This document shows, piece after piece, positions 1,600-47,910 of a stretch of 64,000 bases of DNA. The DNA lies in assembly GCA_012401045.1 (NCBI GenBank), contig GCA_012401045.1_4704.1. One strand, 5' to 3'. Within the stretch, counting starts at the first letter, position 1. Every line of letters begins with the position of its first letter. The position numbers and the translations under genes were made by a program. The notes below the pieces were generated by a model, which saw only the letters and a list, made by a program, of their open reading frames with translations, did no database searches and was not told the origin of the DNA. This stretch comes from a phage.

Positions 1600-2397
1600 T
1601 TAACGTGTTCTCCTATCACGATGCGTATACGACTGAAGACCGATGTCCATATGCGGTAACGTCAGCGTCTGCCAGATCTGTCGTGCGTAACGATCGAGCG
1701 TATGATCATCAGTAACACAATCGACGGGTTCGATGAGGTGAGTCGTATACTGGCTTTTCTCAGAGAAAGGTTCGATGTTAGCTGTATCGCCTAATCCGCT
1801 TTTCACCGTGAAGACAAGACGTGTGACGATCATCGCCTTATGCTGCTGTTCATTATAACGAAGGCTGCGGTATACGGCATAGCTTCCTCCTTTTAGGCTT
1901 CGGGTATAACGAAGGTCGGAGGTCGTCTCGGAAATCTGATACAGCATCCAGTCCAACGTATCACGCCAGTACGCATCATCCACATCAGGAACCGTAATAC
2001 CGTACCGCGTAGGCAGCAATTCTAAAAGCAATTTATAAAGTCCGCGACGTAAGCCATGCTCTTCTGTTTCCGATAAACCGTTTCCAACATAACGTGAAAT
2101 ACGCGTACGTAAATACGTACGGATGAACATATTCGCCATCAGTGTTTTCACTCTGCTACTGGTATCCTCAAAGCGATCAACGCTGAAACTCGTTTCAATC
2201 AGCCGTCCATTAAAATACAATGCAGCAACATACATCGCGTTATTACTATCACGTTCAATGTTTAAACGACCGCAGATATTAGCCGCATCGTTCATGGTAA
2301 ATTCTAATTTATCGTGTTCGATACGATAGATAATATCCTCTTGGGTTGCCAGGCTCGCAATGCGACGGTAGCCCGGAGAAGTACGTTTTACACTCAT
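1600..2397 (-). CDS. hypothetical protein (265 aa)
   Basis: The ORF track starts at 2436, but that ATG lies in the flank of a terminator hairpin. The ATG at 2397 (MSVKRTSPG...) has a GAGGA RBS 5 nt upstream. Confidence 0.6.
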   Translation of the reverse strand: MSVKRTSPGYRRIASLATQEDIIYRIEHDKLEFTMNDAANICGRLNIERDSNNAMYVAALYFNGRLIETSFSVDRFEDTSSRVKTLMANMFIRTYLRTRISRYVGNGLSETEEHGLRRGLYKLLLELLPTRYGITVPDVDDAYWRDTLDWMLYQISETTSDLRYTRSLKGGSYAVYRSLRYNEQQHKAMIVTRLVFTVKSGLGDTANIEPFSEKSQYTTHLIEPVDCVTDDHTLDRYARQIWQTLTLPHMDIGLQSYTHRDRRTR

Positions 2398-2479: not shown

Positions 2480-3118
2480 TTAACCTAATTTACCACCGGC
2501 GATGTTGGTGAAATCTTCGCCATCAGGAACTTGCAGTAGGATACGTGCCATGTCCCAGTTGGTTAATGTAATTGCTTTATCATCGATACTCAGTTCTGGT
2601 AGGTCGAGTTCATGATCATCAAACTCGTAGGAAATACTCCACGTTTCATCTGTTTTAGGATCGGTTATCAACACACCGTCTGTTACACGCATGTAGTCCG
2701 GGTGCAGTTCATTACTGAATGTGCTGAACGGATCGGTGTAACATTCAGCATATCCCTCGATCTGCTGACGCTGTGCCTTCGTACGTAATTCAGGGCACGC
2801 CATGATCAGTTGTCGAGATATACCGTTTGCGGCACGGAAGTCTTCCACGGTGTTACATGGCATAACCACATCGTCATGGAAGATGTTCTCCGATTGTCTC
2901 AACAGCGTCTTACGGAGTTCAGCATAGTTTATCTGATTGAATGCGTCGAACGTTGCTAACGATTCAGCGTAAAAATGCTTTACGTGTTCGCTTGCGCCGC
3001 CGAGGCTATTCATCAACTTGTGACCGTACTCCATGAAGCTTTTATCGAGACCGGAGGACATTTCTCCGAACCTCAGTGCACGATAACTGTCTCGTCCACC
3101 TGTAAATATTTGCGCCAT
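2480..3118 (-). CDS. hypothetical protein (212 aa)
   Basis: Complete ORF with an AAGGAGG RBS. It lies immediately downstream of the beta-prime exon 3 stop. No RNAP motifs seen. Confidence 0.6.
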   Translation of the reverse strand: MAQIFTGGRDSYRALRFGEMSSGLDKSFMEYGHKLMNSLGGASEHVKHFYAESLATFDAFNQINYAELRKTLLRQSENIFHDDVVMPCNTVEDFRAANGISRQLIMACPELRTKAQRQQIEGYAECYTDPFSTFSNELHPDYMRVTDGVLITDPKTDETWSISYEFDDHELDLPELSIDDKAITLTNWDMARILLQVPDGEDFTNIAGGKLG

Positions 3119-3133
3119 TACAGGCGTCCTCCT

Positions 3134-3358
3134 TTAGCAATGGTTGTTAGTTGCTTCTATTTCATCAAGATACGGTTCTACGTCATCGCCCTCCACGAAT
3201 TCGTTGAACCAACAGTCAATGGTAGAAATAACCGGCGACTGGTGTTCACATTTCTTAGATACCTTAAAAGGTACGTTATTATCCATCATACCGAGTTCGG
3301 GTCGAAAACGCCCGAAATGTTTCGCAGTCCAAATGTCTGGGACGATATGGTTGTTCAT
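3134..3358 (-). CDS. non-virion RNA polymerase beta-prime N fragment, exon 3 (74 aa)
   Basis: Begins MNNHIVPD..LGMMDNNVPF. This matches the universal beta-prime segment after the catalytic motif (DGD-x-M-N/A-x-H-x-P ... LMMSTNNILSP in E. coli). It is in frame with exon 2 when joined at 3358. Confidence 0.75.
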   Translation of the reverse strand: MNNHIVPDIWTAKHFGRFRPELGMMDNNVPFKVSKKCEHQSPVISTIDCWFNEFVEGDDVEPYLDEIEATNNHC

Positions 3359-3713
3359 CGTAGTGTTCAGCATGAGTCGCTACCTCATACCCGCAGCTTT
3401 ACCTGCAGCTTCCGGTGTTACCGGAATGTCCAGAATATATCTTATCCATATTCCAAATGGAACGTAGGACTTCCGCGCTGGATCTCGCTTGAGACCACGT
3501 ATTCGTTGAACGTTCTCCTGAACGGAGCTTCGCTGCTGATCGAACATTGTCACGTACGGTAGGCATCCCCGAAGGGATTGTCATTGAAGCCGCGTACATC
3601 CGCTACCTTGTTTCTACCTTATCGGTTCCTCTTACGAGGCGTAGCAGCCTTAGCCCTTCCCAGCAATTCACGGAATCCAAGCTCTTCCTTTCGGAAGGCA
3701 GGGCCTATGATTA
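3359..3713 (-). ncRNA. group I self-splicing intron 2 (ORF-less, 355 nt)
   Basis: Read on the minus strand: P AAUUGCUGGGAAGG (3668..3655), Q GAUCAGCAGC (3541..3532), R GUUCAACGAAUACG (3511..3498), S AAGAUAUAUUC (3443..3433). P7 is GAAUA/UAUUC and P4 is GCUG/CAGC. There is a GAAA-capped P2 and P9-type hairpins (e.g. UUCCGG-UAACA-CCGGAA, 3426..3410). The last nucleotide is G (3359). The boundaries rest mainly on reading frame and motif restoration. Confidence 0.75.
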
Positions 3714-3726
3714 AGCGTCACCGTCG
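3714..3726 (-). CDS. non-virion RNA polymerase beta-prime N fragment, 13-nt micro-exon 2 (completes Phe, encodes Asp-Gly-Asp-Ala)
   Basis: Minus-strand CGACGGUGACGCU. It is the only GAY-GGN-GAY between exon 1 and exon 3. It is complementary to the intron-1 guide sequence CCGUCG (P10). Confidence 0.75.
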
Positions 3727-4103
3727 CTGTTTATCGACTATATCTTCATCCTCGTTGCGAGGAGTCTCCCGTTTTGGTCTGTGTTTAACAGAGCCTACTC
3801 TACTCGACATCGCGTCTTTCGATAGTCTGTGAGCACACATCTTAACAAACATTCGTGGATTCCTAAACAGGTGAATGTTCTTGTTGAGATGCTTCGCTGC
3901 GGATTATTCCCGTCCTACCTCTTTTACCGTACCCAGTTCATTACGCTGGCCCTCATCTATGTCACCACGATGAGTTGGTGTGTAGTCCGATTACAGAAAC
4001 TTCCCGTCAATTAGAGAGCTTTAACTACGTTCCTGTTACCAGAAACCCGACTCCGACGGCATCAATAAATCAACATAAGTTATTGATTTAATTGAAAAAA
4101 CTG
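3727..4103 (-). ncRNA. group I self-splicing intron 1 (ORF-less, 377 nt)
   Basis: Read on the minus strand: P AAUUGACGGGAAG (4012..4000), Q AAUCCGCAGC (3905..3896), R GCUCACAGACUAUCG (3834..3820), S AAGAUAUAGUC (3746..3736). P7 is GACUAU/AUAGUC. The internal guide CCGUCG-GAGUCGG (4059..4047) pairs with the 5' exon end CCGACUU (U.G at the splice site) and with the 3' exon start CGACGG. The intron ends in G (3727). Confidence 0.88.
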
Positions 4104-5359
4104 AAGTCGGCATTATAACCTTTGAGGATCATCACGCTTAACCCGATGGTGTTATCCTGCGGATCGCGTTTAACCTTGGTGATTTCAAGACATTGGTTAC
4201 TGCTTCGGTCAAGTGATGGGTTTCGAACAAAGCCGCACACAATCCCATCGAACGGTGTATCAGCAATAAGCTCATCGTGCAGCTCGCTCATCATCGGATG
4301 ATAATTACGGACATGTTCCGCAACGAACGCACGCGCTGCTCTCGGTGAATAACCACGATGGAATAACTTGGATTGGATATGTTCTTTATTGGTTAAAGTA
4401 AATGGTGCGTATGGGAAATGCAGATGATAATAACGATGGTTCGCTGTTATCGAACTGATTACGGTACGCGTGGTGAATGGATGTAATGTACCTAATATGT
4501 TTTTACGTGTAATACCTTTCTTCTTACCGATGAACTCATCGAAAATCGCCGCGTGGTATTGCAGTAGCTTCAATTGCACTTTCGCCATCCAGTTTTCTTT
4601 CTTTCTGGCGCTCAAAGGTGTTGTTGGATGATAGATACTGTTCAACGTACCGATAGCATCGATCGCACCTTCCATTTTGCTATCCGCATAACGACCGGTT
4701 GGCGTATTCTCGATAACGAACATCATGGCCGCAGGAAAGCTGATATACTGACTGAAGAACTTATCACGATGGATACGGATGAATTCTCGTAGCGTGTCAA
4801 CTTTCTCCGTGTTCTTCGGTCCACGTAACGTCGGTCCTTTATACAAGATCTCCATGATGCGATCGAAGTTCTGTATAAAACTATTTACACCGCGACGTAT
4901 CCCGAATACATCGAATTGCTGCTCCAGATAGTTCTTGAGTTCGATGGGTCGTTTTACATTTGGACGGTAACTGGCATCAATGAGCCACGTCATCGTTTCA
5001 AAGCTTTTGATATTCAACTCGCTTGCCAGCACGAGATGGACCAACGGGTTAATGAACGCATCGATTCCTTCAGGAACACGCGCCCAAACCGTCGAACGAA
5101 TCTCCTGTTCTGCCGGGTAGGTCACAACCGTTTTACAGTTTGGACACACCGTGCCGAGTAGCTCACCACGATTGTAGAAACCACAACCACACTGTGGTGT
5201 GATATCCAGCGTATCGCTGGAGTAAACACGGGTGATAAAACTGTTTAATTTCTTCTTCTCTTCGACGACTTTTGTATCGTAATCATTCAACAAAATCGGC
5301 GTAAAAGGAAGTTCTGCGAGCTGTCTATCGAAACTCACGATATCGAGCATGATGGCCAT
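4104..5359 (-). CDS. non-virion RNA polymerase beta-prime N fragment, exon 1 (phiKZ gp55-like)
   Basis: Zn-ribbon CGCGFYNRGELLGTVCPNCKTVV resembles E. coli beta-prime [23 protein letters not shown]. The uninterrupted ORF ends ...KGYNADF-SFFN*, stopping in the middle of NADFDGD. It sits directly downstream of chimallin, as in phiKZ gp54-gp55. Confidence 0.85.
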
Positions 5360-5401: not shown

Positions 5402-5425
5402 GGGAGGGAGGTTGCCCTCCCTCCC
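5402..5425 (-). terminator. stem-loop after chimallin (probably partial terminator)
   Basis: Perfect 10-bp GGGAGGGAGG-TTGC-CCTCCCTCCC hairpin 27 nt after the chimallin stop. Confidence 0.65.
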
Positions 5426-5451: not shown

Positions 5452-7347
5452 TTAGAACAGATTGAATGCCCCACCCATGTTGTTAACGCCAACATTCGGA
5501 CGATCGCTACGTGCGTAGATGTTACCGGAGATGTTACCCAGACCACGAGCACGTGCTGCCATGTTACCACGAACAGCGGTACCTGCCAGATGCTGGATGT
5601 TCTCAGGACGGATGGTGAAGCCAGCATCAGCAGCGGCTTCGATCAGCGCCTGCAGTGCTAACGGATCGAAGTCGTAACGCATTGCCCAGCCGGTTTGTTC
5701 CCAGCTACCAGACAGAACACGATCGATGATTTCGTGACGAGCGACAACACGCTGAGACATCGTCATATCGGTACGGTCGAAGCTGTCTTCCCAAGCTTCT
5801 ACGGTATCCGGGTTAGTGATGTTCATCATGTACAGATCGTCCATATCACGAATATCGTGACGGTGACCATCCTGGTGGTTGTAGTGACCCAGCGGGATAC
5901 GGTTACCGGTAGCGTAGACCAGCGGTTGGCCGTATTGATATTTCTTGCTGAAGCAACCCAGGGTAACATCATCGAACGCACGGAAGAGGGCTTTGTAACC
6001 TTCGGAGATTTCACGGACTTCACCTTCAACTTTGCCCGTATAGATCTTCTCAGCCGCCGGGATCATACGCAGCAGCCAGCTGTACTCACCTTCTTCCGGT
6101 ACGTCGATAGAAATCAGCAGAGACGGATACAGTACCTGTTGCAGGAACTTGTAAATCTGCTCGTTGGTTTGAGTAGACAGATCCAGCGGTGCGGTAACTT
6201 CCGGATCCAGTACCATCGCCAGAGCACCCGGGTTATGCGGACCAATACCACGGGCAGCGTTGCTGATTAAAGACTGTGCCCACGCCATACCGCTGTTCAG
6301 CGTAGCGATGGTGCCAATCAGACCCAACACGAAAGTGTTCGGTGTGAACGCATCCAGCTCCAGCGGGTAAGCGCTGGTCATCACGTAACGCGGCTGGTAT
6401 TGTACAGTCGGCGGTACCGGATAACCGTTAACCAGAACAGGGCCTTGGTTGAAGGTCGGGTTCTGCGGGCTGTAAGTCAGGTCAATGTAACCGGTGGTGG
6501 CGACCAGACGCTGTTGACTATCGTAATCGCTCATCGCTTGACGGATGCGGTTAGAGATAGTTACAGTGATGTCAGAACGCACAGGGTTACCAACAATATC
6601 GCTGTCCTGCATACCGCTGGTGTTGTACTGAACGCTGCTGATTGGCTGATCGCTTGCCATCATGCCCAGGTTGAACTGCGGCAGACCCAGTTTATCACCG
6701 AGACGGATTTCGATCGCGGTTTGGATTGCGTTATCTGCAGCAGACAGCAGGGTGGTTGCCAGATGCGCAGATTCAGCGGTGATTTCATTGGTCACCACAG
6801 CCAGACCAGCGATACGAACAGTACCGTTAGACTTACCGCCAATAGCTGAGTACATTGCCGCCATGACTTCGTTGATGAACGTACCGTTCAGGTTATCAAC
6901 CCAGGTACGCGGTACCAGAATGTTACCATGCGGACCTTGTTCTTCACGACGCGGCAGCGGAGCCAGACCAGCAACCAGCGGAAGCACATAACCAAAGAAG
7001 TGGTTATGGTCACCAACTTTTGCACCACTCATAACGACCAGGGTCGGATACGGTACGCTGTACTGGTTCGGGTCAACCGCAACAAAGATGAAGTCGTTTT
7101 TGAACTGGGTATCTTCCAGATATTTCTCCATCAGACGACGGAGATTCAGTACCTGCTCGGAGCCAGTATTACGGCTAATACGACGGCTCAGTGTACGGTT
7201 GATCGTACGCATCGTATGAGTTACTTTAGGCTGGCCAGCAAAATCTGCAGCGGTTTCCAGCGCCTCATCAGCACGTTGTGCGGTGCGGGTTTCAGCTGCA
7301 CGAATTTCTACATTATCGTTACCGTTATTACGTACGTCTAAGCCCAT
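5452..7347 (-). CDS. chmA: chimallin, phage nucleus shell protein (631 aa)
   Basis: Size about 70 kDa, strongly biased (highly expressed) codon usage, own early-type promoter motif and terminator. It lies immediately upstream of the nvRNAP beta-prime gene, as phiKZ gp54 does. PhuZ and split RNAPs occur in the same window. Not verified by alignment. Confidence 0.72.
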   Translation of the reverse strand: MGLDVRNNGNDNVEIRAAETRTAQRADEALETAADFAGQPKVTHTMRTINRTLSRRISRNTGSEQVLNLRRLMEKYLEDTQFKNDFIFVAVDPNQYSVPYPTLVVMSGAKVGDHNHFFGYVLPLVAGLAPLPRREEQGPHGNILVPRTWVDNLNGTFINEVMAAMYSAIGGKSNGTVRIAGLAVVTNEITAESAHLATTLLSAADNAIQTAIEIRLGDKLGLPQFNLGMMASDQPISSVQYNTSGMQDSDIVGNPVRSDITVTISNRIRQAMSDYDSQQRLVATTGYIDLTYSPQNPTFNQGPVLVNGYPVPPTVQYQPRYVMTSAYPLELDAFTPNTFVLGLIGTIATLNSGMAWAQSLISNAARGIGPHNPGALAMVLDPEVTAPLDLSTQTNEQIYKFLQQVLYPSLLISIDVPEEGEYSWLLRMIPAAEKIYTGKVEGEVREISEGYKALFRAFDDVTLGCFSKKYQYGQPLVYATGNRIPLGHYNHQDGHRHDIRDMDDLYMMNITNPDTVEAWEDSFDRTDMTMSQRVVARHEIIDRVLSGSWEQTGWAMRYDFDPLALQALIEAAADAGFTIRPENIQHLAGTAVRGNMAARARGLGNISGNIYARSDRPNVGVNNMGGAFNLF

Positions 7348-41668: not shown

Positions 41669-44600
41669 TTATTTAGCGTCGTTAAAGTAAATATCAACAG
41701 CTCGTTCCGTTGCGTAGAGGAGACCAAGATTCACAGTCCCAACCACTTCCGGTGAACCGATGATACGGTTAGCGATACTGGTGCCACTGAAGATAGCATC
41801 AAGGGTGTGCCCGTCTTCGGTTTTGTTCACACCATGACCCACGGAAGAGACAACGGATTTCGCTTGAGCTGCGAAGGTACCTTTATCGCCCATCCCCGCA
41901 CCAAGGTCGTAACGCATGAAAATACGGATTGCGATCTGGTTCTCGCCTAACGGATTACCGTCTATTCTCACGTTACTGTTATTGATACGCCCCGTAGCTG
42001 CTTCGTTGAGTTTCAGTTCCTTAACGCGTTTAGCTCGCGCTTTATCTGCATCACCGACGAGCGCCGCCATGGTTTCACTCATATCCTCAATCTGAGCGCG
42101 GTACAACACATCGATCTGTACAACTTCACCATGAACGTCAGCACGTGGGTTATACTGACTCATACGACGTAATGCTTCAACGGCTTCCTGACTCTCATCA
42201 CTCAGATCGGTCGCAATCGGTTCTTCCAGTGTTGCAAGGATCGTTCGTGGTTCAACATGATCGCCGATTTTCACGAGACCACGAATGTTGAGATGGGCGT
42301 CAACGATGAGCGTACGGCTCTTAATCGATGGTGTTACGAGACGATCGGCAAGATTGTCGAAGATATACGAACTGTCCTCGTGAGTCTCTGGAATATCCAG
42401 AATACCGACAAGAGACAGAACACCTGCGCGCCAAACAACCTGACCTGGGTTCCACCAATCGCGTTTAAAATAAAGACGATGGAAGACCACCACATCCTGA
42501 TCCTTAACGCGATCCCCGACTTTATAATCGGTAATAAGATCGTGAGGATAATACTTACCTGGTCCTTTCCCGATTATCGTGCCGAGTTGGAAAACCTCTT
42601 CTCCTAACTCTGGATCGTCGTATTGTATCGTAAGCGCAGTTTTGGTGACCTTCTTAACAACACCATCGCCTTGGGCAGCTGCTGCGAAGAGCTTACCAAC
42701 ACGATGCGCGATAACGGTCTCACCGCCGGTGCGCCACGGTTGTACATCGTAACCCTCAGCGGCAATCATGCGGTTGTGTTGGATCCCGACGAAGACCAGA
42801 CGTTTTCCATCATCACGGTCTACGGCTGGAACAGCTAACGCCGACGTACTCATTACCGATGAGATACCGTCTGTCTTTTCATCGAATGGTCGTGTTTCAC
42901 CATACACCGACACGATATTAGCATTAGGTGCAAGGTAAGCTGAGATACCCACATCCCCACTATCTTTCGTACCCTCTGACACAATACCAACATCGGACTT
43001 GTCGTATTCACGATCACGTGCGCGTCGAAGCGATGTCTTTGAACGACCCCCGATACCGGTCATCGTTGCTTCTTCACCCTGCTTGATATCCAGCATCGGG
43101 TTGGTTTCATCGATCACGATGGACGCGCTGTCGTCGAGAATTTGGTTCCAGACGCTTACCGGACTGATTGAGATTTTCTGGCGATTTCCTTGACTGCTGT
43201 TCTCATTCTGACGAATAGCGCCAACCAGATCCTTATACACCAATTCAGCGAACTTATCGTACGTTTTAAAACGTTGGTAGTTCACATCGTTGGTGTTAGG
43301 TGCCCAGTCATCCAGAAGCAGTTCAACAGCACGCAGTAACAACATGGCGAAATCGGTAGGTTCTCCCATGTTCTGTAGCAACGTACGGCTTACCGGATCA
43401 ACGAAAAGACGCTCCATGAGTTCAAGTTCGCGTAAATGGCGAACCTTAAGTCCAGCACCATCAACAACGTTAAAATAGATATCTCGATTGTCGAAAGCAC
43501 CGCGAGCGTAACCGATGTAGTTACGGTATTCGTTAAACCCACCCAGCAACAACGTCGTCATGCGATCGTCTTTACTGAAGATCAAACTTTCGTCATCAAA
43601 GCTCACCGCGAATTCATCGGGTGCTAATCCCATACGAGAACCGCGAGGTACCGTACGATAGTTCGCTTTAAGATGTTCTAATAACGGGGTAAGTCCACCC
43701 AGATAACTTAGAACGACACCAACCGGAATACGTACACCCATGAATTCAAGATCGGCGGCTTCGATCGGCATCTTAGCCGCATTGATACCGAAGAAATCAG
43801 GGAACGTCCCTACAGGTGTTGGTGTTTGTCCTGACTGACAGATATAGAGCTGATTGCGTTTATCGATTGCTAAGAATTCACCCAGCGTGTTACGCGCAAA
43901 CGTCAGGAGCCCTTCGGCTAACTGTTCGTTGAACCGATCTTCCCCGATGAACTCCGGCAATGTCTTTGTATCGAGACGTATATCCCAATCAGCAAATTGG
44001 ATTTGGGTATAGTTGCGTGCAAGCACAGCGAAGTAATACGGGACTTTGACGGCCGGATCAAAGACGTTACCACGTTTTAACGTGGTTAAGGGTGAGGACT
44101 TATCGTAATACATCGCTGTAAGTTGGCGTGTTAACCAACGACCGGCGTTATTAACGACACGCTCTGAACGTTTAACAAACACCTTACCGTAGGCGGTACT
44201 CAACGCAACTTCGGATGATGATACCTTTCTAATAGGTTTATCAACACGTTGTTTACGCATCCGGTATTTGATGCCGTTAACGACATAAATGCCGTCCTTA
44301 CGAACCTTCGGCAACATCACCGGGAACGTGGTTGGGACACCGCCTACAGGGGCCAGTTTAATCGTGATAACTTGATAATCCCCCATCACGTCAACAACAT
44401 CTTCAACTTTATATCCCGTGACAGGGTAACCTGCCTGTTGTACGGCAACAACAGCGGCTGCGATGTCCTTTTGCATCACGTGTTCAACGTAATGTTTATC
44501 CCACACCGCAAGCGTCGATTTACATAGGCTCTTATCGACGATAACATCCGCTTCCGGCATAACCTTTGCTGGCGCTAATTTCGCGGCTTTTGGTTTAACT

Positions 44601-46015
44601 TCAACATACTCAGCAAGTGTTAATCCAGAACCGTCGGGTGCTTCGATTTCATGGATGGCGTCGGCATTACGCATCGCTGCTTTATATTGGACACCGCTTA
44701 ACTGACCCGCATCCGCCAGATCGCTCGCGCGCACCAACACCGCATCCGATAACGACTGAATATATTCACCGTGTGTTTTTGGTAACGTTGCCGCGTCAAA
44801 GACATCAACCTTTTCTTCTTCGGTATCGTCGGTAACGACCTCGAAGAGATCGTCGGTAATGTCCTGATCTTCATCGGGTTGGAAATCCGGCTGTACTTCT
44901 ACCCCGGGTACTTCACGGACATCTTCGAACGAGCGTTCTACAATGGCGTTCCACGCATCAGCGTCATCGTCTTCATCCGACCCACCAACCAACTCCGCTT
45001 CTAACTCATCGGGATCAAGAACAGTGGCCAGATCCTCACCGTTAGGAAGCACGACGTCGCGATCATCGTACTCTGCATCCGGGCTGTCCGCAAGAATATC
45101 TCGCTCTTGACGAAGAACCTGTTCCTCTTCTTGTTTCTGTTCTTCTTCATTCGCGCTCTGCGACCATAGACGTGTTACCGCCATCATCCAACGACGCTGG
45201 AAGGTTTCGAGTGTCGTTTTATCGAGTTCTTCCCCTTCCTTTACAAGCCCGGTACGCCATTCTTCCAACAGGCCGAGATTCAGCGTAAAGAAGTACACGC
45301 CGTCTGTAAATACAACGTTAAGCTTATCCAGCGTGGCTCTGTCTAACGAAGCCATCGTGCTGTTCTCACGATCGGTTCCCAGCCAGCGGAAGAAGTCAAA
45401 GAACGACAGCTCCTCCGGCGTAGCGAAATTCATGAGGTTGTTACGGGTCGGTGCCTGTTGCGTGGTACGCATCAACGAAATCTTCGGCAATGTTGACGGT
45501 ATACGGAACAACAGAAAGTGTTGGCGATCGCTTTGCTGCGCGATTTCGTTGGCTTTCGACCAAATTGTTTTACGTACGTTGAACCATTCATCATACCAAC
45601 GGGTGAGCGTTGGACGATAGATGTACATGTGGTTAAGATGTGCGTAGTTAGCAACGATCTGAGCGTTGATGTTTTTCTCCACCGTACTTAGATCGGTAAC
45701 CAAACGAAAACGACGATGTGACGCACGATAATCCAATTTCGCTCGTGGGAGCTGGAATCGCTGATCACGTCGAGGTGCACCCTGTTTGGTTGCGAGATCA
45801 TCAGCAAACGAAATCCATAGTTGAGCACTTTCTTTACTCAACATGTATTCGTTTTCTGGAGGACCTATCAATGAAGGATCCGTTGCGGTGTAATGATAGA
45901 CAGCATAACGTGGCAGCTGCAATAGCTGCACTAAACGTAATCTCGGTGACAATAGCTCTTGGTAGCGTCTGACGCCAAACTGTCGGTAGTAATCAAGGTA
46001 TTTAAGTTTTGCCAT
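41669..46015 (-). CDS. virion RNA polymerase beta subunit, N-terminal/major fragment (1448 aa, phiKZ gp178-like)
   Basis: NPMLDIKQGEEATMTGIGGRSKTSLRRARDREYDKSDVGIVSEGTKDSGDVGISAYL aligns by eye to E. coli beta [57 protein letters not shown]. The C-terminal GDKGTFAAQAKSVVS..EDGHTLDAIFSGTSIANR matches [35 protein letters not shown]. The protein ends right after this block. Confidence 0.85.
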   Translation of the reverse strand: MAKLKYLDYYRQFGVRRYQELLSPRLRLVQLLQLPRYAVYHYTATDPSLIGPPENEYMLSKESAQLWISFADDLATKQGAPRRDQRFQLPRAKLDYRASHRRFRLVTDLSTVEKNINAQIVANYAHLNHMYIYRPTLTRWYDEWFNVRKTIWSKANEIAQQSDRQHFLLFRIPSTLPKISLMRTTQQAPTRNNLMNFATPEELSFFDFFRWLGTDRENSTMASLDRATLDKLNVVFTDGVYFFTLNLGLLEEWRTGLVKEGEELDKTTLETFQRRWMMAVTRLWSQSANEEEQKQEEEQVLRQERDILADSPDAEYDDRDVVLPNGEDLATVLDPDELEAELVGGSDEDDDADAWNAIVERSFEDVREVPGVEVQPDFQPDEDQDITDDLFEVVTDDTEEEKVDVFDAATLPKTHGEYIQSLSDAVLVRASDLADAGQLSGVQYKAAMRNADAIHEIEAPDGSGLTLAEYVEVKPKAAKLAPAKVMPEADVIVDKSLCKSTLAVWDKHYVEHVMQKDIAAAVVAVQQAGYPVTGYKVEDVVDVMGDYQVITIKLAPVGGVPTTFPVMLPKVRKDGIYVVNGIKYRMRKQRVDKPIRKVSSSEVALSTAYGKVFVKRSERVVNNAGRWLTRQLTAMYYDKSSPLTTLKRGNVFDPAVKVPYYFAVLARNYTQIQFADWDIRLDTKTLPEFIGEDRFNEQLAEGLLTFARNTLGEFLAIDKRNQLYICQSGQTPTPVGTFPDFFGINAAKMPIEAADLEFMGVRIPVGVVLSYLGGLTPLLEHLKANYRTVPRGSRMGLAPDEFAVSFDDESLIFSKDDRMTTLLLGGFNEYRNYIGYARGAFDNRDIYFNVVDGAGLKVRHLRELELMERLFVDPVSRTLLQNMGEPTDFAMLLLRAVELLLDDWAPNTNDVNYQRFKTYDKFAELVYKDLVGAIRQNENSSQGNRQKISISPVSVWNQILDDSASIVIDETNPMLDIKQGEEATMTGIGGRSKTSLRRARDREYDKSDVGIVSEGTKDSGDVGISAYLAPNANIVSVYGETRPFDEKTDGISSVMSTSALAVPAVDRDDGKRLVFVGIQHNRMIAAEGYDVQPWRTGGETVIAHRVGKLFAAAAQGDGVVKKVTKTALTIQYDDPELGEEVFQLGTIIGKGPGKYYPHDLITDYKVGDRVKDQDVVVFHRLYFKRDWWNPGQVVWRAGVLSLVGILDIPETHEDSSYIFDNLADRLVTPSIKSRTLIVDAHLNIRGLVKIGDHVEPRTILATLEEPIATDLSDESQEAVEALRRMSQYNPRADVHGEVVQIDVLYRAQIEDMSETMAALVGDADKARAKRVKELKLNEAATGRINNSNVRIDGNPLGENQIAIRIFMRYDLGAGMGDKGTFAAQAKSVVSSVGHGVNKTEDGHTLDAIFSGTSIANRIIGSPEVVGTVNLGLLYATERAVDIYFNDAK

Positions 46016-46018
46016 GGG

Positions 46019-47665
46019 TTAGGCTCCACGAGGTCCCGTTAAGTTGCGTAATAGGAACGCAACCGTATCGTAACCAATATCGATGTTGAATTTATTTTTA
46101 CCACTTACCCAGAAAGCTCGCTTCTTGTGCGAGTTGGTAATTTCGTCAATAGCTTCCATGGAATAAAGAACGTTAACCGAGACCGTATCACCATCAAAGT
46201 CCCCACCAAGTCCGGCGAGGTATGGCGCAGGGACAATAGTCGTTTCTACGAACGAAGCATTAGGTAACCAGTCGGGGTATTCCCATGCGATAAATCGTTC
46301 ATCCGTTATTGGTTCCCAGTTACTATCCAGTTCGGTTTTCGGTTTTGCGGCGACGGTTGTACGTGCGTAACAGGTTAACGGGATAACGGATTGCATACCT
46401 GATACCGGATAACGTGTTACCATCGCAGCCAGGTTATTCCAGTACTTATATCCGGCAATATAGATAAGCTCGGTGTAAGTAATGGGGTGAACATCCGCGC
46501 CAGGTTTATTCAACATCTCCGGGGGTAATTCACTCATGCCACGGAATAACCGAAACGAATCGTTGTTCACATAGACGAGGCAAAGATATCGTCCATTGAC
46601 CATGATAGGCTCGTTACGCACGCCAGGATCGCTTAAGGTGTTCAGTAAACGTTCTATTCCGTCCCATGTTGTAAAGTCATCGATGGTGTCTGGATCAAGC
46701 GTGACGCGCTCACGTTCCATCGTTTCGGTATCAGTAAGTTCAACTTCTGTAACATCACGGACAAATATTTCCTGCAAAATACCGGTACGTAACGCATGTT
46801 GCGTTACTGGGAGAGCGGCTTTACTCATCTGGTATAACCCTAACTGAACCGCGGTACAGGAAGGCTGGTTAGGCGACCCTAATACCTCCGTTGTGGGGTT
46901 AATTGCCGAAATAACGTTACGGGTTGAGTTCCAAACGCGACGTGAACCAAACTTACCTTGGAAGATCCCTTTCTTACCCTGGAACATATCCAACAGTAAA
47001 GCGTAGATATCGTTGAATGTTCTCTGTAAGCTCCAGCGCTGGCCGTCGTAAACGGGATCGGAATAATCTTTTAATCCATCAGGGACGGTGTTAGAAATTG
47101 CAAGGAAACGACGATACAACTCCGTGATTTCTTGCTCGCTTTCATACCCACCTTCTTTTACTTCTATTTCACGTAAGCCTGCAGGCAATACCAGTAAGTG
47201 ACGGGTCATCGCTTTGAACATGTTCTCTTCGACAACTTTAATTCGTAGCTCTCGTTGAGCTGAACCCGTTGAAACGAACTTGATATCCGCGACGTGTTGT
47301 GCAAAGAACCCGTATCCTGTTTGTCCTGTTAATGCATCAGACGCAACGAAGTCGCGTTGTTCGGGATCCCACCGAGCGTACGCCTTCCCCGACATGATAT
47401 CGCCATAGAGGTGTTTTAATCGAATGAGACGGTCGTAAATGACAGGATGCAGGATTTCAACCTTGCATTCAATCACCGCAAATCGACGGTCTCGATCTTC
47501 ACTACCCGCACTACCAAAGATGGTGTAAGAATAGAAACCATCATCGTGGAAATTACCGGTGCTTGGGTCACGAATGCTCATGCTCGTGATCTTGGGGAGA
47601 AAACGTAACTGCTGTTTATCGAGGTGTAAAATACTAATATTAAACGGCTCTCTGACTTTAGCCAT
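46019..47665 (-). CDS. virion RNA polymerase beta-prime subunit, N-terminal fragment (548 aa, phiKZ gp180-like)
   Basis: RRFAVIECKVEILHPV resembles RMGHIELAAPVAHIW. An intact catalytic GGDFDGDTVSVNV is present. Start set at the ATG at 47665, 8 nt after an AAAGAGGAG RBS. Confidence 0.85.
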   Translation of the reverse strand: MAKVREPFNISILHLDKQQLRFLPKITSMSIRDPSTGNFHDDGFYSYTIFGSAGSEDRDRRFAVIECKVEILHPVIYDRLIRLKHLYGDIMSGKAYARWDPEQRDFVASDALTGQTGYGFFAQHVADIKFVSTGSAQRELRIKVVEENMFKAMTRHLLVLPAGLREIEVKEGGYESEQEITELYRRFLAISNTVPDGLKDYSDPVYDGQRWSLQRTFNDIYALLLDMFQGKKGIFQGKFGSRRVWNSTRNVISAINPTTEVLGSPNQPSCTAVQLGLYQMSKAALPVTQHALRTGILQEIFVRDVTEVELTDTETMERERVTLDPDTIDDFTTWDGIERLLNTLSDPGVRNEPIMVNGRYLCLVYVNNDSFRLFRGMSELPPEMLNKPGADVHPITYTELIYIAGYKYWNNLAAMVTRYPVSGMQSVIPLTCYARTTVAAKPKTELDSNWEPITDERFIAWEYPDWLPNASFVETTIVPAPYLAGLGGDFDGDTVSVNVLYSMEAIDEITNSHKKRAFWVSGKNKFNIDIGYDTVAFLLRNLTGPRGA

Positions 47666-47910
47666 GGAGACACTCCTCTTTACCACCACCGGCTGCGGCG
47701 GTATCATCTGAACACACGAGAGACGTAATGGGTGATGGCGTCACCCATCGCTTCCTTGCTTGAGGCGAGGAAGTTATTAGGTTACGTACCTGCCTGATTT
47801 TATCAGGTGGGCGATGTGTGAAGTTACGCTTCAACATTATCAATGCCGAAGGTAAACTTCGTGCATCACGTTCCAACGTAACATGGGAACGTATCGAACT
47901 GGAGGTATAC

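Follow-up and report, generated by a model that had tools for sequence, protein, structure and literature searches.

Introns are known in several RNA polymerase genes of chimalliviruses. In phiKZ, gp55 is among the genes known to contain an intron (PMC11512511), and the mature gp55 protein is found in PDB entry 7ogp as a chain named PHIKZ055/PHIKZ056.1. Further introns are known in phiKZ gp71-73 and PhiPA3 gp65-66, and the virion RNA polymerase gene gp211/209 of PhiPA3 has an intron-encoded HNH nicking endonuclease, gp210 (Birkholz et al. 2024, PMC11620839). In this study, I analysed a stretch of phage DNA of 64,000 nucleotides (contig GCA_012401045.1_4704.1; hereafter, the window), whose phiKZ gp55 homologue encodes the N-terminal part of the beta-prime subunit of the non-virion RNA polymerase (nvRNAP). 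It is very likely, with a probability of roughly 93%, that this gene is split by two group I introns, both lacking an open reading frame (ORF), inside the codons of the NADFDGD motif and that it is spliced to encode a 497-aa protein. What is described below on RNA folding, guides, junctions and the restored protein was obtained by computation.

A predicted 13-nt exon in the active-site motif

The region is 98.3% identical to that of Escherichia phage vB_EcoM_Goslar, which is a nucleus-forming jumbo phage. As a first-pass annotation of the window had pointed out, a 423-aa ORF downstream of the chimallin gene (4088..5359, minus strand) ends inside the motif, its last residues being ...KGYNADFSFFN before the stop codon. 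This ORF covers positions 1-419 of the 478 positions of the PHROG 2987 profile ('RNA polymerase beta subunit'), and residues 6-57 of a 79-aa ORF (3134..3373, minus strand) match positions 424-475 of the same profile. Thus, only about four residues are absent between the two ORFs. According to the ORF list, the approximately 700 nt between them have no credible ORF, and neither intron has one. As had also been noted, the 745 nt separating the parts of the ORF contain exactly one DGD-coding 9-mer, at 3725. When the segments 5359..4104, 3726..3714 and 3358..3134 were joined as had been proposed (junctions 4104/3726 and 3714/3358), a 1494-nt ORF of 497 codons for amino acids was indeed obtained, reading GYNADFDGDAMNNHIVPD (Table 1). 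The predicted protein reads NADFDGDAMNNH around the motif, and its stretch spanning both junctions is GYNADFDGDAMNNHIVPDIWTAK. The exon 1 protein is 100% identical to Goslar gp247, and exon 3 aligns to the residues that follow DFDGD in phiKZ gp55. The NADFDGD motif and the residues after it span three exons. The three catalytic aspartates themselves come from two exons and not from three as had been claimed, since the first one lies in exon 1 and the second and third ones lie in the micro-exon.

The alignment check of the 497-aa product favoured the proposed junctions. The product aligns without gaps through the motif with the homologues of Eowyn, RAY, PhiPA3 and Xoo-sp14, and the uninterrupted homologues read NADFDGDALGG, ...ELNV, ...QLNL and ...ALNV at this place. 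A phmmer search matched residues 21-476, across the motif, to phiKZ gp55 (PDB 7ogp chain A) with an E-value of 1.1e-74, and a weak match to Pfam RNA_pol_Rpb1_2 was also obtained. The NADFDGD sequence expected of a beta-prime double-psi beta-barrel is intact only after splicing. The codon differences of the spliced coding sequence are 24 synonymous and 1 non-synonymous relative to Goslar, and 120 synonymous and 5 non-synonymous relative to locus L137. Judging from these counts, the spliced coding sequence, in all three exons, is under strong purifying selection.

Automatic annotation had been expected to truncate or split this gene. The GenBank and RefSeq records of Goslar indeed show intron 1 only, together with a 423-aa 'RNA polymerase beta subunit' and a 79-aa hypothetical protein. 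The gene is thus mis-annotated in the reference Goslar genome, and the same is the case in every Goslar-like genome examined. Core-genome and proteomic analyses of this model Escherichia coli nucleus-forming phage miss the 497-aa catalytic subunit.

Intron-less alleles and intron-free contigs

Is the 13-nt stretch retained where the introns are absent? Scans of IMG/VR and metagenomes with exon 1 yielded eleven further Goslar-like loci, Goslar among them, which makes 12 with the window. Each locus was parsed against the coding frame, and one unique solution was obtained for each. Four insertion sites, a to d, lie within about 30 nt, in the codons K-G-Y-N-A-D-F-D-G-D-A-M. Six intron configurations were found among the 12 genomes, whose exons are 91-99% identical (Table 1). 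Three loci with an intron at site b only (L132-L134) read GACTTTGACGGYGACGCRATGAAC straight across sites c and d, and the locus with an intron at site a only (L138) reads GATTTCGACGGGGACGCGATGAAC. In these four loci, the 13-nt stretch is contiguous with both neighbouring exons. On this comparison, they are natural intron-less alleles at sites c and d in approximately 97% identical relatives, and they encode exactly the product predicted for the window. Before site d, the codon is GCA or GCG in the alleles without intron d and GCT in those with it, which fits the need for a U at position -1. Introns at site c or d of the relatives also occur singly, each at its own site.

Both 497-aa spliced proteins were found by exact look-up in assemblies of public sequencing runs. 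Over 6.7 kb, the Logan contig SRR32224763_123 (L142) matches Goslar (171128..169654 and 167846..162622) with 100.000% identity. Exactly two pieces are missing from it, the 1440-nt intron c with its endonuclease gene and the 355-nt intron d; the 13-nt exon is retained. On NC_048170.1, exon 1 ends at 169655, intron c occupies 169654..168215, the micro-exon 168214..168202 and intron d 168201..167847, and exon 3 starts at 167846. Since the sequenced Goslar genome has both introns and an RNA sequencing (RNA-seq) time course of Goslar has been described (bioRxiv 10.1101/2023.09.20.558163), the simplest reading of this contig is an assembled spliced transcript. Thus, it is probably complementary DNA (cDNA). 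A contig of SRR17070135 has exons of the L010 type without introns and starts 83 nt upstream of the start codon, which is close to the transcription start of Goslar reported 91 nt upstream of the start codon (bioRxiv 10.1101/2023.09.20.558163). The intron-less alleles and L142 support the arrangement of tandem introns around a 13-nt exon that the first-pass annotation had put forward.

Some further observations were made on the relatives. In a three-intron locus (L011 5244..6365), the extra intron interrupts the Tyr codon (site a) and has an RF00028 score of 30.3 bits. In L010 (5620..5976), the exon ends with C (GCC) at site d, so that P1 would have a C-G pair and not the near-universal U.G; an intron-free contig (L143) shares the L010 exon sequence, and the C variant may still splice. 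A near-identical 3' module, the P9.2 hairpin GUAUGGAGUAGCGAACCAUAC plus UGAAGAU, is found in the introns at sites a, b and d, with 93% identity over 45 nt (L011 5559..5604, L010 5549..5593, window 3443..3364), and the cores of these introns belong to different families. The common module combined with differing cores points to recombination among adjacent introns or to a functional element that they have in common. Hundreds of database entries for a 'hypothetical protein' of Salmonella enterica, E. coli, Shigella and Enterobacter are truncated exon 1 or exon 3 ORFs of Goslar-like phages, and the contigs that hold them measure about 240 kb. This shows that assemblies of enterobacterial isolates commonly carry the genome of a Goslar-like jumbo phage as a passenger. 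No match to the locus was found among the complete E. coli genomes.

Folds and guides of the two introns

RF00028 of Rfam was searched in E-value mode over 3100..4250 (1.15 kb). Intron 1 gave a full-length match (model 1-253) at 3727..4094 on the minus strand (49.3 bits, E=3e-11), and intron 2 gave another full-length match (model 1-253) at 3413..3723 on the same strand (20.9 bits, E=0.0095). When the whole window was scanned by E-value, intron 1 was retained (E=1.6e-9) and no group I intron besides it was found; a default scan of the whole window at the gathering score of 50 bits gave no match. Against RF00028, intron 1 of Goslar reaches 46.9 bits, and the homologous 377 nt are labelled Intron_gpI in GenBank. 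RNAalifold recovered P1, P2, P3 and P8 of intron 1, and P7 (GACUA/UAGUC) was read from the sequence.

Since the RF00028 match of intron 2 is weak, the family of intron 2 was tested comparatively. Twelve sequences from Goslar-like contigs, occupying two insertion sites with about 71% identity between the sites, were aligned, and compensatory pairs were counted from the alignments with slid and shuffled controls. Without any prior structure, RNAalifold recovered P1, P2, P3, P4, P5 with extensions, P6, P7.1, P8, P9, P9.1 and P9.2. When the P7 pseudoknot was added, 99.6% of the cells were paired and 35 of the 93 pairs were compensatory; the slid alignments gave 1-4, and none of 500 shuffles reached the observed value. 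P3, P4, P6, P7 and P8 are 100% paired and P5 is 97.9% paired. Compensatory changes occur in P6, P7 and P8 and are absent from P3, P4 and P5. P7 varies among GAAUA/UAUUC, GAUCA/UGAUC and GAGUA/UACUC across the family members. The 54 nt past the end of the intron 2 match form the covarying P9.1 and P9.2 hairpins. Judged by this covariation, intron 2 is a genuine structured group I RNA. The P7.1 element is a hairpin between P7 and P3', and such a hairpin is typical of subgroup IA. Both introns appear to be of the phage IA-like group I type.

The internal guide of intron 1 is antisense to the ligated junction (^ marks a junction or an insertion point). Its 3' half pairs with CCGACUU of exon 1 to form P1, with a U.G pair at the splice site, and its 5' half, CCGUCG, pairs with CGACGG of the micro-exon to form P10 (-8.6 kcal/mol), adjoining the P1 guide. 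Thus, a single 13-mer is antisense to the junction CCGACUU^CGACGG, exact save for the U.G wobble, and none of 5000 intron shuffles has one. Five relatives with the exon sequence CAGAUUU carry the guide GGAUCUG, which amounts to two compensatory pairs and one change from U-A to U.G. Since the P10 guide of intron 1 is not complementary to exon 3 (-0.1 kcal/mol), exon skipping, whose product would end with ...NADL, should be disfavoured. In intron 2, P1 is formed by GCU^UA with UAGGC (-2.8 kcal/mol), with a U.G pair at the splice site, and its pairs covary (U-A/A-U and A-U/C-G); P10 consists only of AUGA of exon 3 with UCAU and is marginal (-0.5 kcal/mol). Throughout the Goslar-like genomes, the 5' exons of the introns all end in U, with the site-d intron of L010 (C) as the one exception, and all 25 introns examined end in G.

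How widespread are these introns? The nhmmer profiles of the three intron families found no further copies in the window. A distant blastn search of phage genomes found no relative of intron 2 outside the Goslar group, and for intron 1 it found only a similarity of about 90 nt in the P5 region to the PhiPA3 gp65/66 intron and to some Bacillus phage introns. The 15-mer of the intron 2 core, TTCCGTGAATTGCTG, was also looked up in IMG/VR and met more than 120 stretches. This count is near chance for a 15-mer, and blastn showed only Goslar-like contigs to be related, so these candidates were discarded.

Table 1. Features of the split polymerase gene and of related loci (^, junction or insertion point; window coordinates unless another locus is named)
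Feature	Position	Strand	Description
Exon 1, nvRNAP beta-prime N-terminal subunit gene (phiKZ gp55 homologue)	4104..5359	minus	ends ...GCC GAC TT, last base U
Intron 1 (site c)	3727..4103	minus	377 nt, ORF-less; group I; ends in G, omega-G at 3727
Internal guide of intron 1	4047..4059	minus	CCGUCG^GAGUCGG, antisense to ligated junction
Micro-exon	3714..3726	minus	13 nt, CGACGGTGACGCT; last base of Phe, then Asp-Gly-Asp-Ala
Intron 2 (site d)	3359..3713	minus	355 nt, ORF-less; group I; preceded by U (3714), ends in G (3359)
Short guide region of intron 2	3703..3710	minus	UAGGC (3707..3703), P1; UCAU (3710..3707), P10
Exon 3	3134..3358	minus	ATG AAC AAC CAT...; 74 codons + stop; PHROG 2987 positions 424-475
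Chimallin (nuclear shell protein) gene	5452..7347	minus	Pfam PF25677, PHROG 4795; directly upstream of polymerase gene
Paralogous beta-prime-like subunit	46019..47707	minus	562-aa ORF, uninterrupted GGDFDGD; PHROG 2986
Partner of the paralogous subunit	41669..46015	minus	PHROG 3148
Insertion site a			GGGT^AT
Insertion site b			GCT^GAC
Insertion site c			GAYTT^C
Insertion site d			GCT^ATG
Configuration of the window			introns c + d, both ORF-less
Configuration of Goslar			introns c + d, endonuclease gene in intron c
Configuration of L011, L135, L136, L137, L139			introns a + c + d, three in tandem; two 13-nt micro-exons, ATAATGCAGATTT and CGACGGKGAYGCT
Configuration of L010			introns b + d; 18-nt micro-exon
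Configuration of L132, L133, L134			intron b only
Configuration of L138			intron a only, endonuclease gene in intron a
Motif intron of phiKZ-like phages (T2P)			AAT^GCG (N^ADFDGD); 80.4 bits (RF00028)
Motif intron of PS119XW (Pseudomonas phage)	L141 about 1661..2021		GAT^CAA (DGD^Q); 75.7 bits
Motif intron of KpGz_1 (Serratia phage)	L004 5216..5694		AAT^GCT; 40.2 bits
Motif intron of pEa_SNUABM_54 (Erwinia phage)	L005 5264..6639		GGT^GAC, with HNH gene; 47 bits

Neighbouring genes

The order of the chimallin gene and the polymerase gene is syntenic with phiKZ gp54-gp55. A hairpin with a perfect, G/C-rich stem of 10 bp and the loop GCAA (GGGAGGGAGG GCAA CCTCCCTCCC) lies at 5402..5425 on the minus strand, between the stop codon of chimallin and the start codon of the polymerase gene. 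It would be within the 5' untranslated region if the transcription start reported for Goslar holds, and no U-tract follows the hairpin.

A DGD-bearing fragment encoded elsewhere had been raised by the first-pass annotation as an objection. A second DFDGD does exist in the window, at 46019..47707, in a paralogous subunit. This subunit and its partner are presumably the virion RNA polymerase subunits. The paralogue belongs to the other polymerase of the phage and is no replacement for the split gene. As its GGDFDGD is uninterrupted, the pile-up of introns is specific to the gene of the non-virion enzyme in this genome.

Proposed splicing pathway and alternative readings

It is likely that one pre-mRNA is made from the gene and that each intron leaves by two transesterifications initiated by guanosine. 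Excision would be autocatalytic. Intron 1 would pick its 5' splice site through CCGACUU/GAGUCGG and align the 13-nt exon through CGACGG/CCGUCG, and intron 2 would use GCU, the last three bases of the micro-exon, in its own short P1. The micro-exon may thus serve as the 3' exon of the first ribozyme and as the 5' exon of the second one. Since bases 1-6 of the micro-exon are read by the guide of intron 1 and bases 11-13 by that of intron 2, the two recognitions would not compete for sequence, in whichever order the reactions may run. Ligation would give ...GAC UU^C GAC GGU GAC GCU^AUG AAC... and the 497-aa subunit with an intact active site.

Several points weigh against this reading. Both introns score below the curated gathering score of Rfam (49.3 and 20.9 against 50 bits), which is an operational threshold and does not define group I introns biologically; the earlier claim of two group I introns is upheld by the full-length matches, the covariation and the guide. 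In intron 2, both P1 and P10 consist of few, weakly paired bases, so that its splice sites rest mainly on comparative evidence. If SRR32224763 is a DNA library, L142 would show a precise intron-free allele and not splicing; besides, the probable cDNA concerns Goslar and not the strain of the window. Finally, an exact look-up of the product with only intron 1 removed (...DFDGDA, then stop) and of the exon-skipped product found neither, and this look-up is insensitive.

Among the alternatives, the one that survives best accepts that the introns are genuine group I RNAs and holds that they self-splice inefficiently, so that a phage or host protein may be needed, or that splicing is kept inefficient on purpose and limits the supply of the subunit. 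The guide pairing of intron 2 is minimal, and two ribozymes must fold 13 nt apart. For the introns predicted in phiKZ, long-read transcriptomics detected no splicing in the conditions of that study (PMC10914365). Ribosome-assisted folding has been described for T4, as cited in PMC10914365; in nucleus-forming phages, transcription is separate from translation (PMC12908238), so that ribosomes would be unable to help the folding in this phage. On the other hand, the catalytic cores are complete and conserved, and the fully spliced, Goslar-identical contig argues that the mature form was abundant in that sample. I regard inefficient splicing as rather unlikely.

It is far less probable that the intervening sequence is composite, either a twintron or one large intron, or that it uses other junctions, the 13 nt being no exon. 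The weak P1 and P10 of intron 2 would suit such a structure, as would the end of its Rfam match at 3413, 54 nt short of the proposed 3' splice site. However, those 54 nt are accounted for by the covarying P9.1/P9.2 hairpins, and removal of 4103..3359 as a whole would lose DGD and shift the frame, giving a product that ends with ...NADL. Moreover, the 13 nt are present in L142 and in the natural intron-less alleles, and either intron is found alone at its own site in relatives. A twintron was rejected because the 13 nt between the introns are kept in the mature sequence and each intron occurs alone in some relatives. A single large intron, translational bypass and a pseudogene were likewise considered and rejected on the evidence given here for the alternatives.

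That the gene is decaying or truncated, its 423-aa and 79-aa ORFs being separate or dead and catalysis being left to the DFDGD subunit at 46019..47707, is scarcely credible: a second, uninterrupted beta-prime-like subunit is encoded in the window and the Goslar records do list a 423-aa subunit and a hypothetical protein, but the two subunits fall into separate PHROG families (2987 and 2986) matching the two distinct chimallivirus polymerases (PMC8287921), all three exons are under strong purifying selection (120:5 against L137), and the frame is restored exactly by removal of RNAs that retain covarying ribozyme folds.

Endonuclease genes and intron mobility

Compared with the window, Goslar has an extra 1065 nt located four bases before the end of intron 1 (window 3728..3731). 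This insert contains the gene of a 336-aa endonuclease with HNH_3 and NUMOD1 (L009 5630..6694; NC_048170.1 about 168217..169281). As the window has just 'AC' at the insertion point, the boundary of the cassette is clean. A perfect inverted repeat of 14 bp, TTACGTGCACCGAC and GTCGGTGCACGTAA, borders the Goslar insert and would bring the ORF into a stem close to the 3' end of the intron. The site-a intron of L138 encodes a 323-aa I-HmuI-like protein in its P1 loop. The introns of the window are ORF-less derivatives or ancestors of such introns and are no endonuclease carriers themselves.

Among close relatives, the introns show a presence/absence polymorphism at the same site, as expected of homing introns. 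The first-pass annotation had suggested homing from the insertion at the conserved motif, and the endonuclease-bearing allele of Goslar intron 1, whose HNH/NUMOD1 gene is absent from the window, supports this suggestion; the two introns may be remnants or beneficiaries of endonuclease-driven homing. It had also mentioned a case of competition between phages through an intron-borne nuclease. This case is real (PMC11620839) and concerns the gene of the beta subunit of the virion polymerase, not the present motif.

The introns at sites b and d are homologous, both follow AYGCU, and their sites are 18 nt apart. From this homology and the shared context, the family apparently shifted by 18 nt, to a position that fits its 3-nt guide, which is what reverse splicing would predict. 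Such a move of the b/d family points to reverse splicing directed by the guide and not to homing by an endonuclease. Where ORF-less introns lie beside introns with an endonuclease gene, they may shield the target. As a tentative and rather doubtful extension, the 30-nt motif stretch (YNADFDGDAM) could be a battleground of stacked introns, in which the endonuclease introns of sites a and c attack the intron-less alleles of co-infecting relatives, the ORF-less introns b, c and d break the recognition sequences as immunity, and the b/d family has moved by reverse splicing. If so, near-identical phages would fall into incompatibility groups according to how many introns they have and in which combination. 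With six configurations and two endonuclease-bearing variants in a tractable host, the Goslar group offers a system for the study of introns as weapons and immunity, following the PhiPA3/phiKZ result. It is also a natural test of how adjacent group I introns avoid interference, since two or three ribozymes must act on 13-nt exons without skipping.

Comparison with known systems

Introns in the same motif are found in other lineages (Table 1). Across chimalliviruses, at least seven nucleotide positions in a motif stretch of about 33 nt are used by introns. The motif introns of KpGz_1, pEa_SNUABM_54 and PS119XW are unannotated in GenBank, where the gene likewise appears as truncated or hypothetical ORFs.

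In the literature searched, I found no description of the second Goslar intron, the 13-nt exon, the three-intron arrangement or the population polymorphism. The orf142 gene of Staphylococcus phage Twort reportedly has three group I introns and shows exon skipping. The literature searched included no phage exon as short as 13 nt and no three introns within about 30 nt; the exon lengths of Twort were not compared. The DNA polymerase and terminase genes of Bastillevirinae have two or three introns (PMC11878797). In mitochondria, exons of less than about 4 codons between introns 'occur regularly in mitochondrial genes' and are missed by automatic annotation (MFannot, PMC10352661). The organellar mini-exons, such as those of fungal mitochondrial cox1, resemble the present one in being short exons between group I or II introns that are overlooked by annotation. 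They differ in belonging to organellar genomes, where splicing is often assisted by maturases, whereas the present micro-exon belongs to a bacteriophage mRNA and codes for two of the three catalytic aspartates.

The PhiPA3 gp211/209 gene likewise has a group I intron at the conserved aspartates of a chimallivirus RNA polymerase gene, with an I-HmuI-like HNH endonuclease as in Goslar intron 1 and the L138 intron. However, it encodes the beta (RpoB-like) subunit of the virion enzyme and has a single intron with an endonuclease, whereas the gene in the window encodes the beta-prime subunit of the non-virion enzyme and has tandem ORF-less introns. The closest likeness is to phiKZ gp55, which belongs to the same gene family, lies in synteny downstream of chimallin and has an intron in the same motif. 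In phiKZ, there is a single intron at another nucleotide position, with a degenerate endonuclease remnant, whereas here two introns, or three in the relatives, lie 13 nt apart at positions unused in phiKZ. Thus, the arrangement in the window is not categorically new but is an unusually dense form of a known arrangement, of which phiKZ shows the one-intron state in the same motif.

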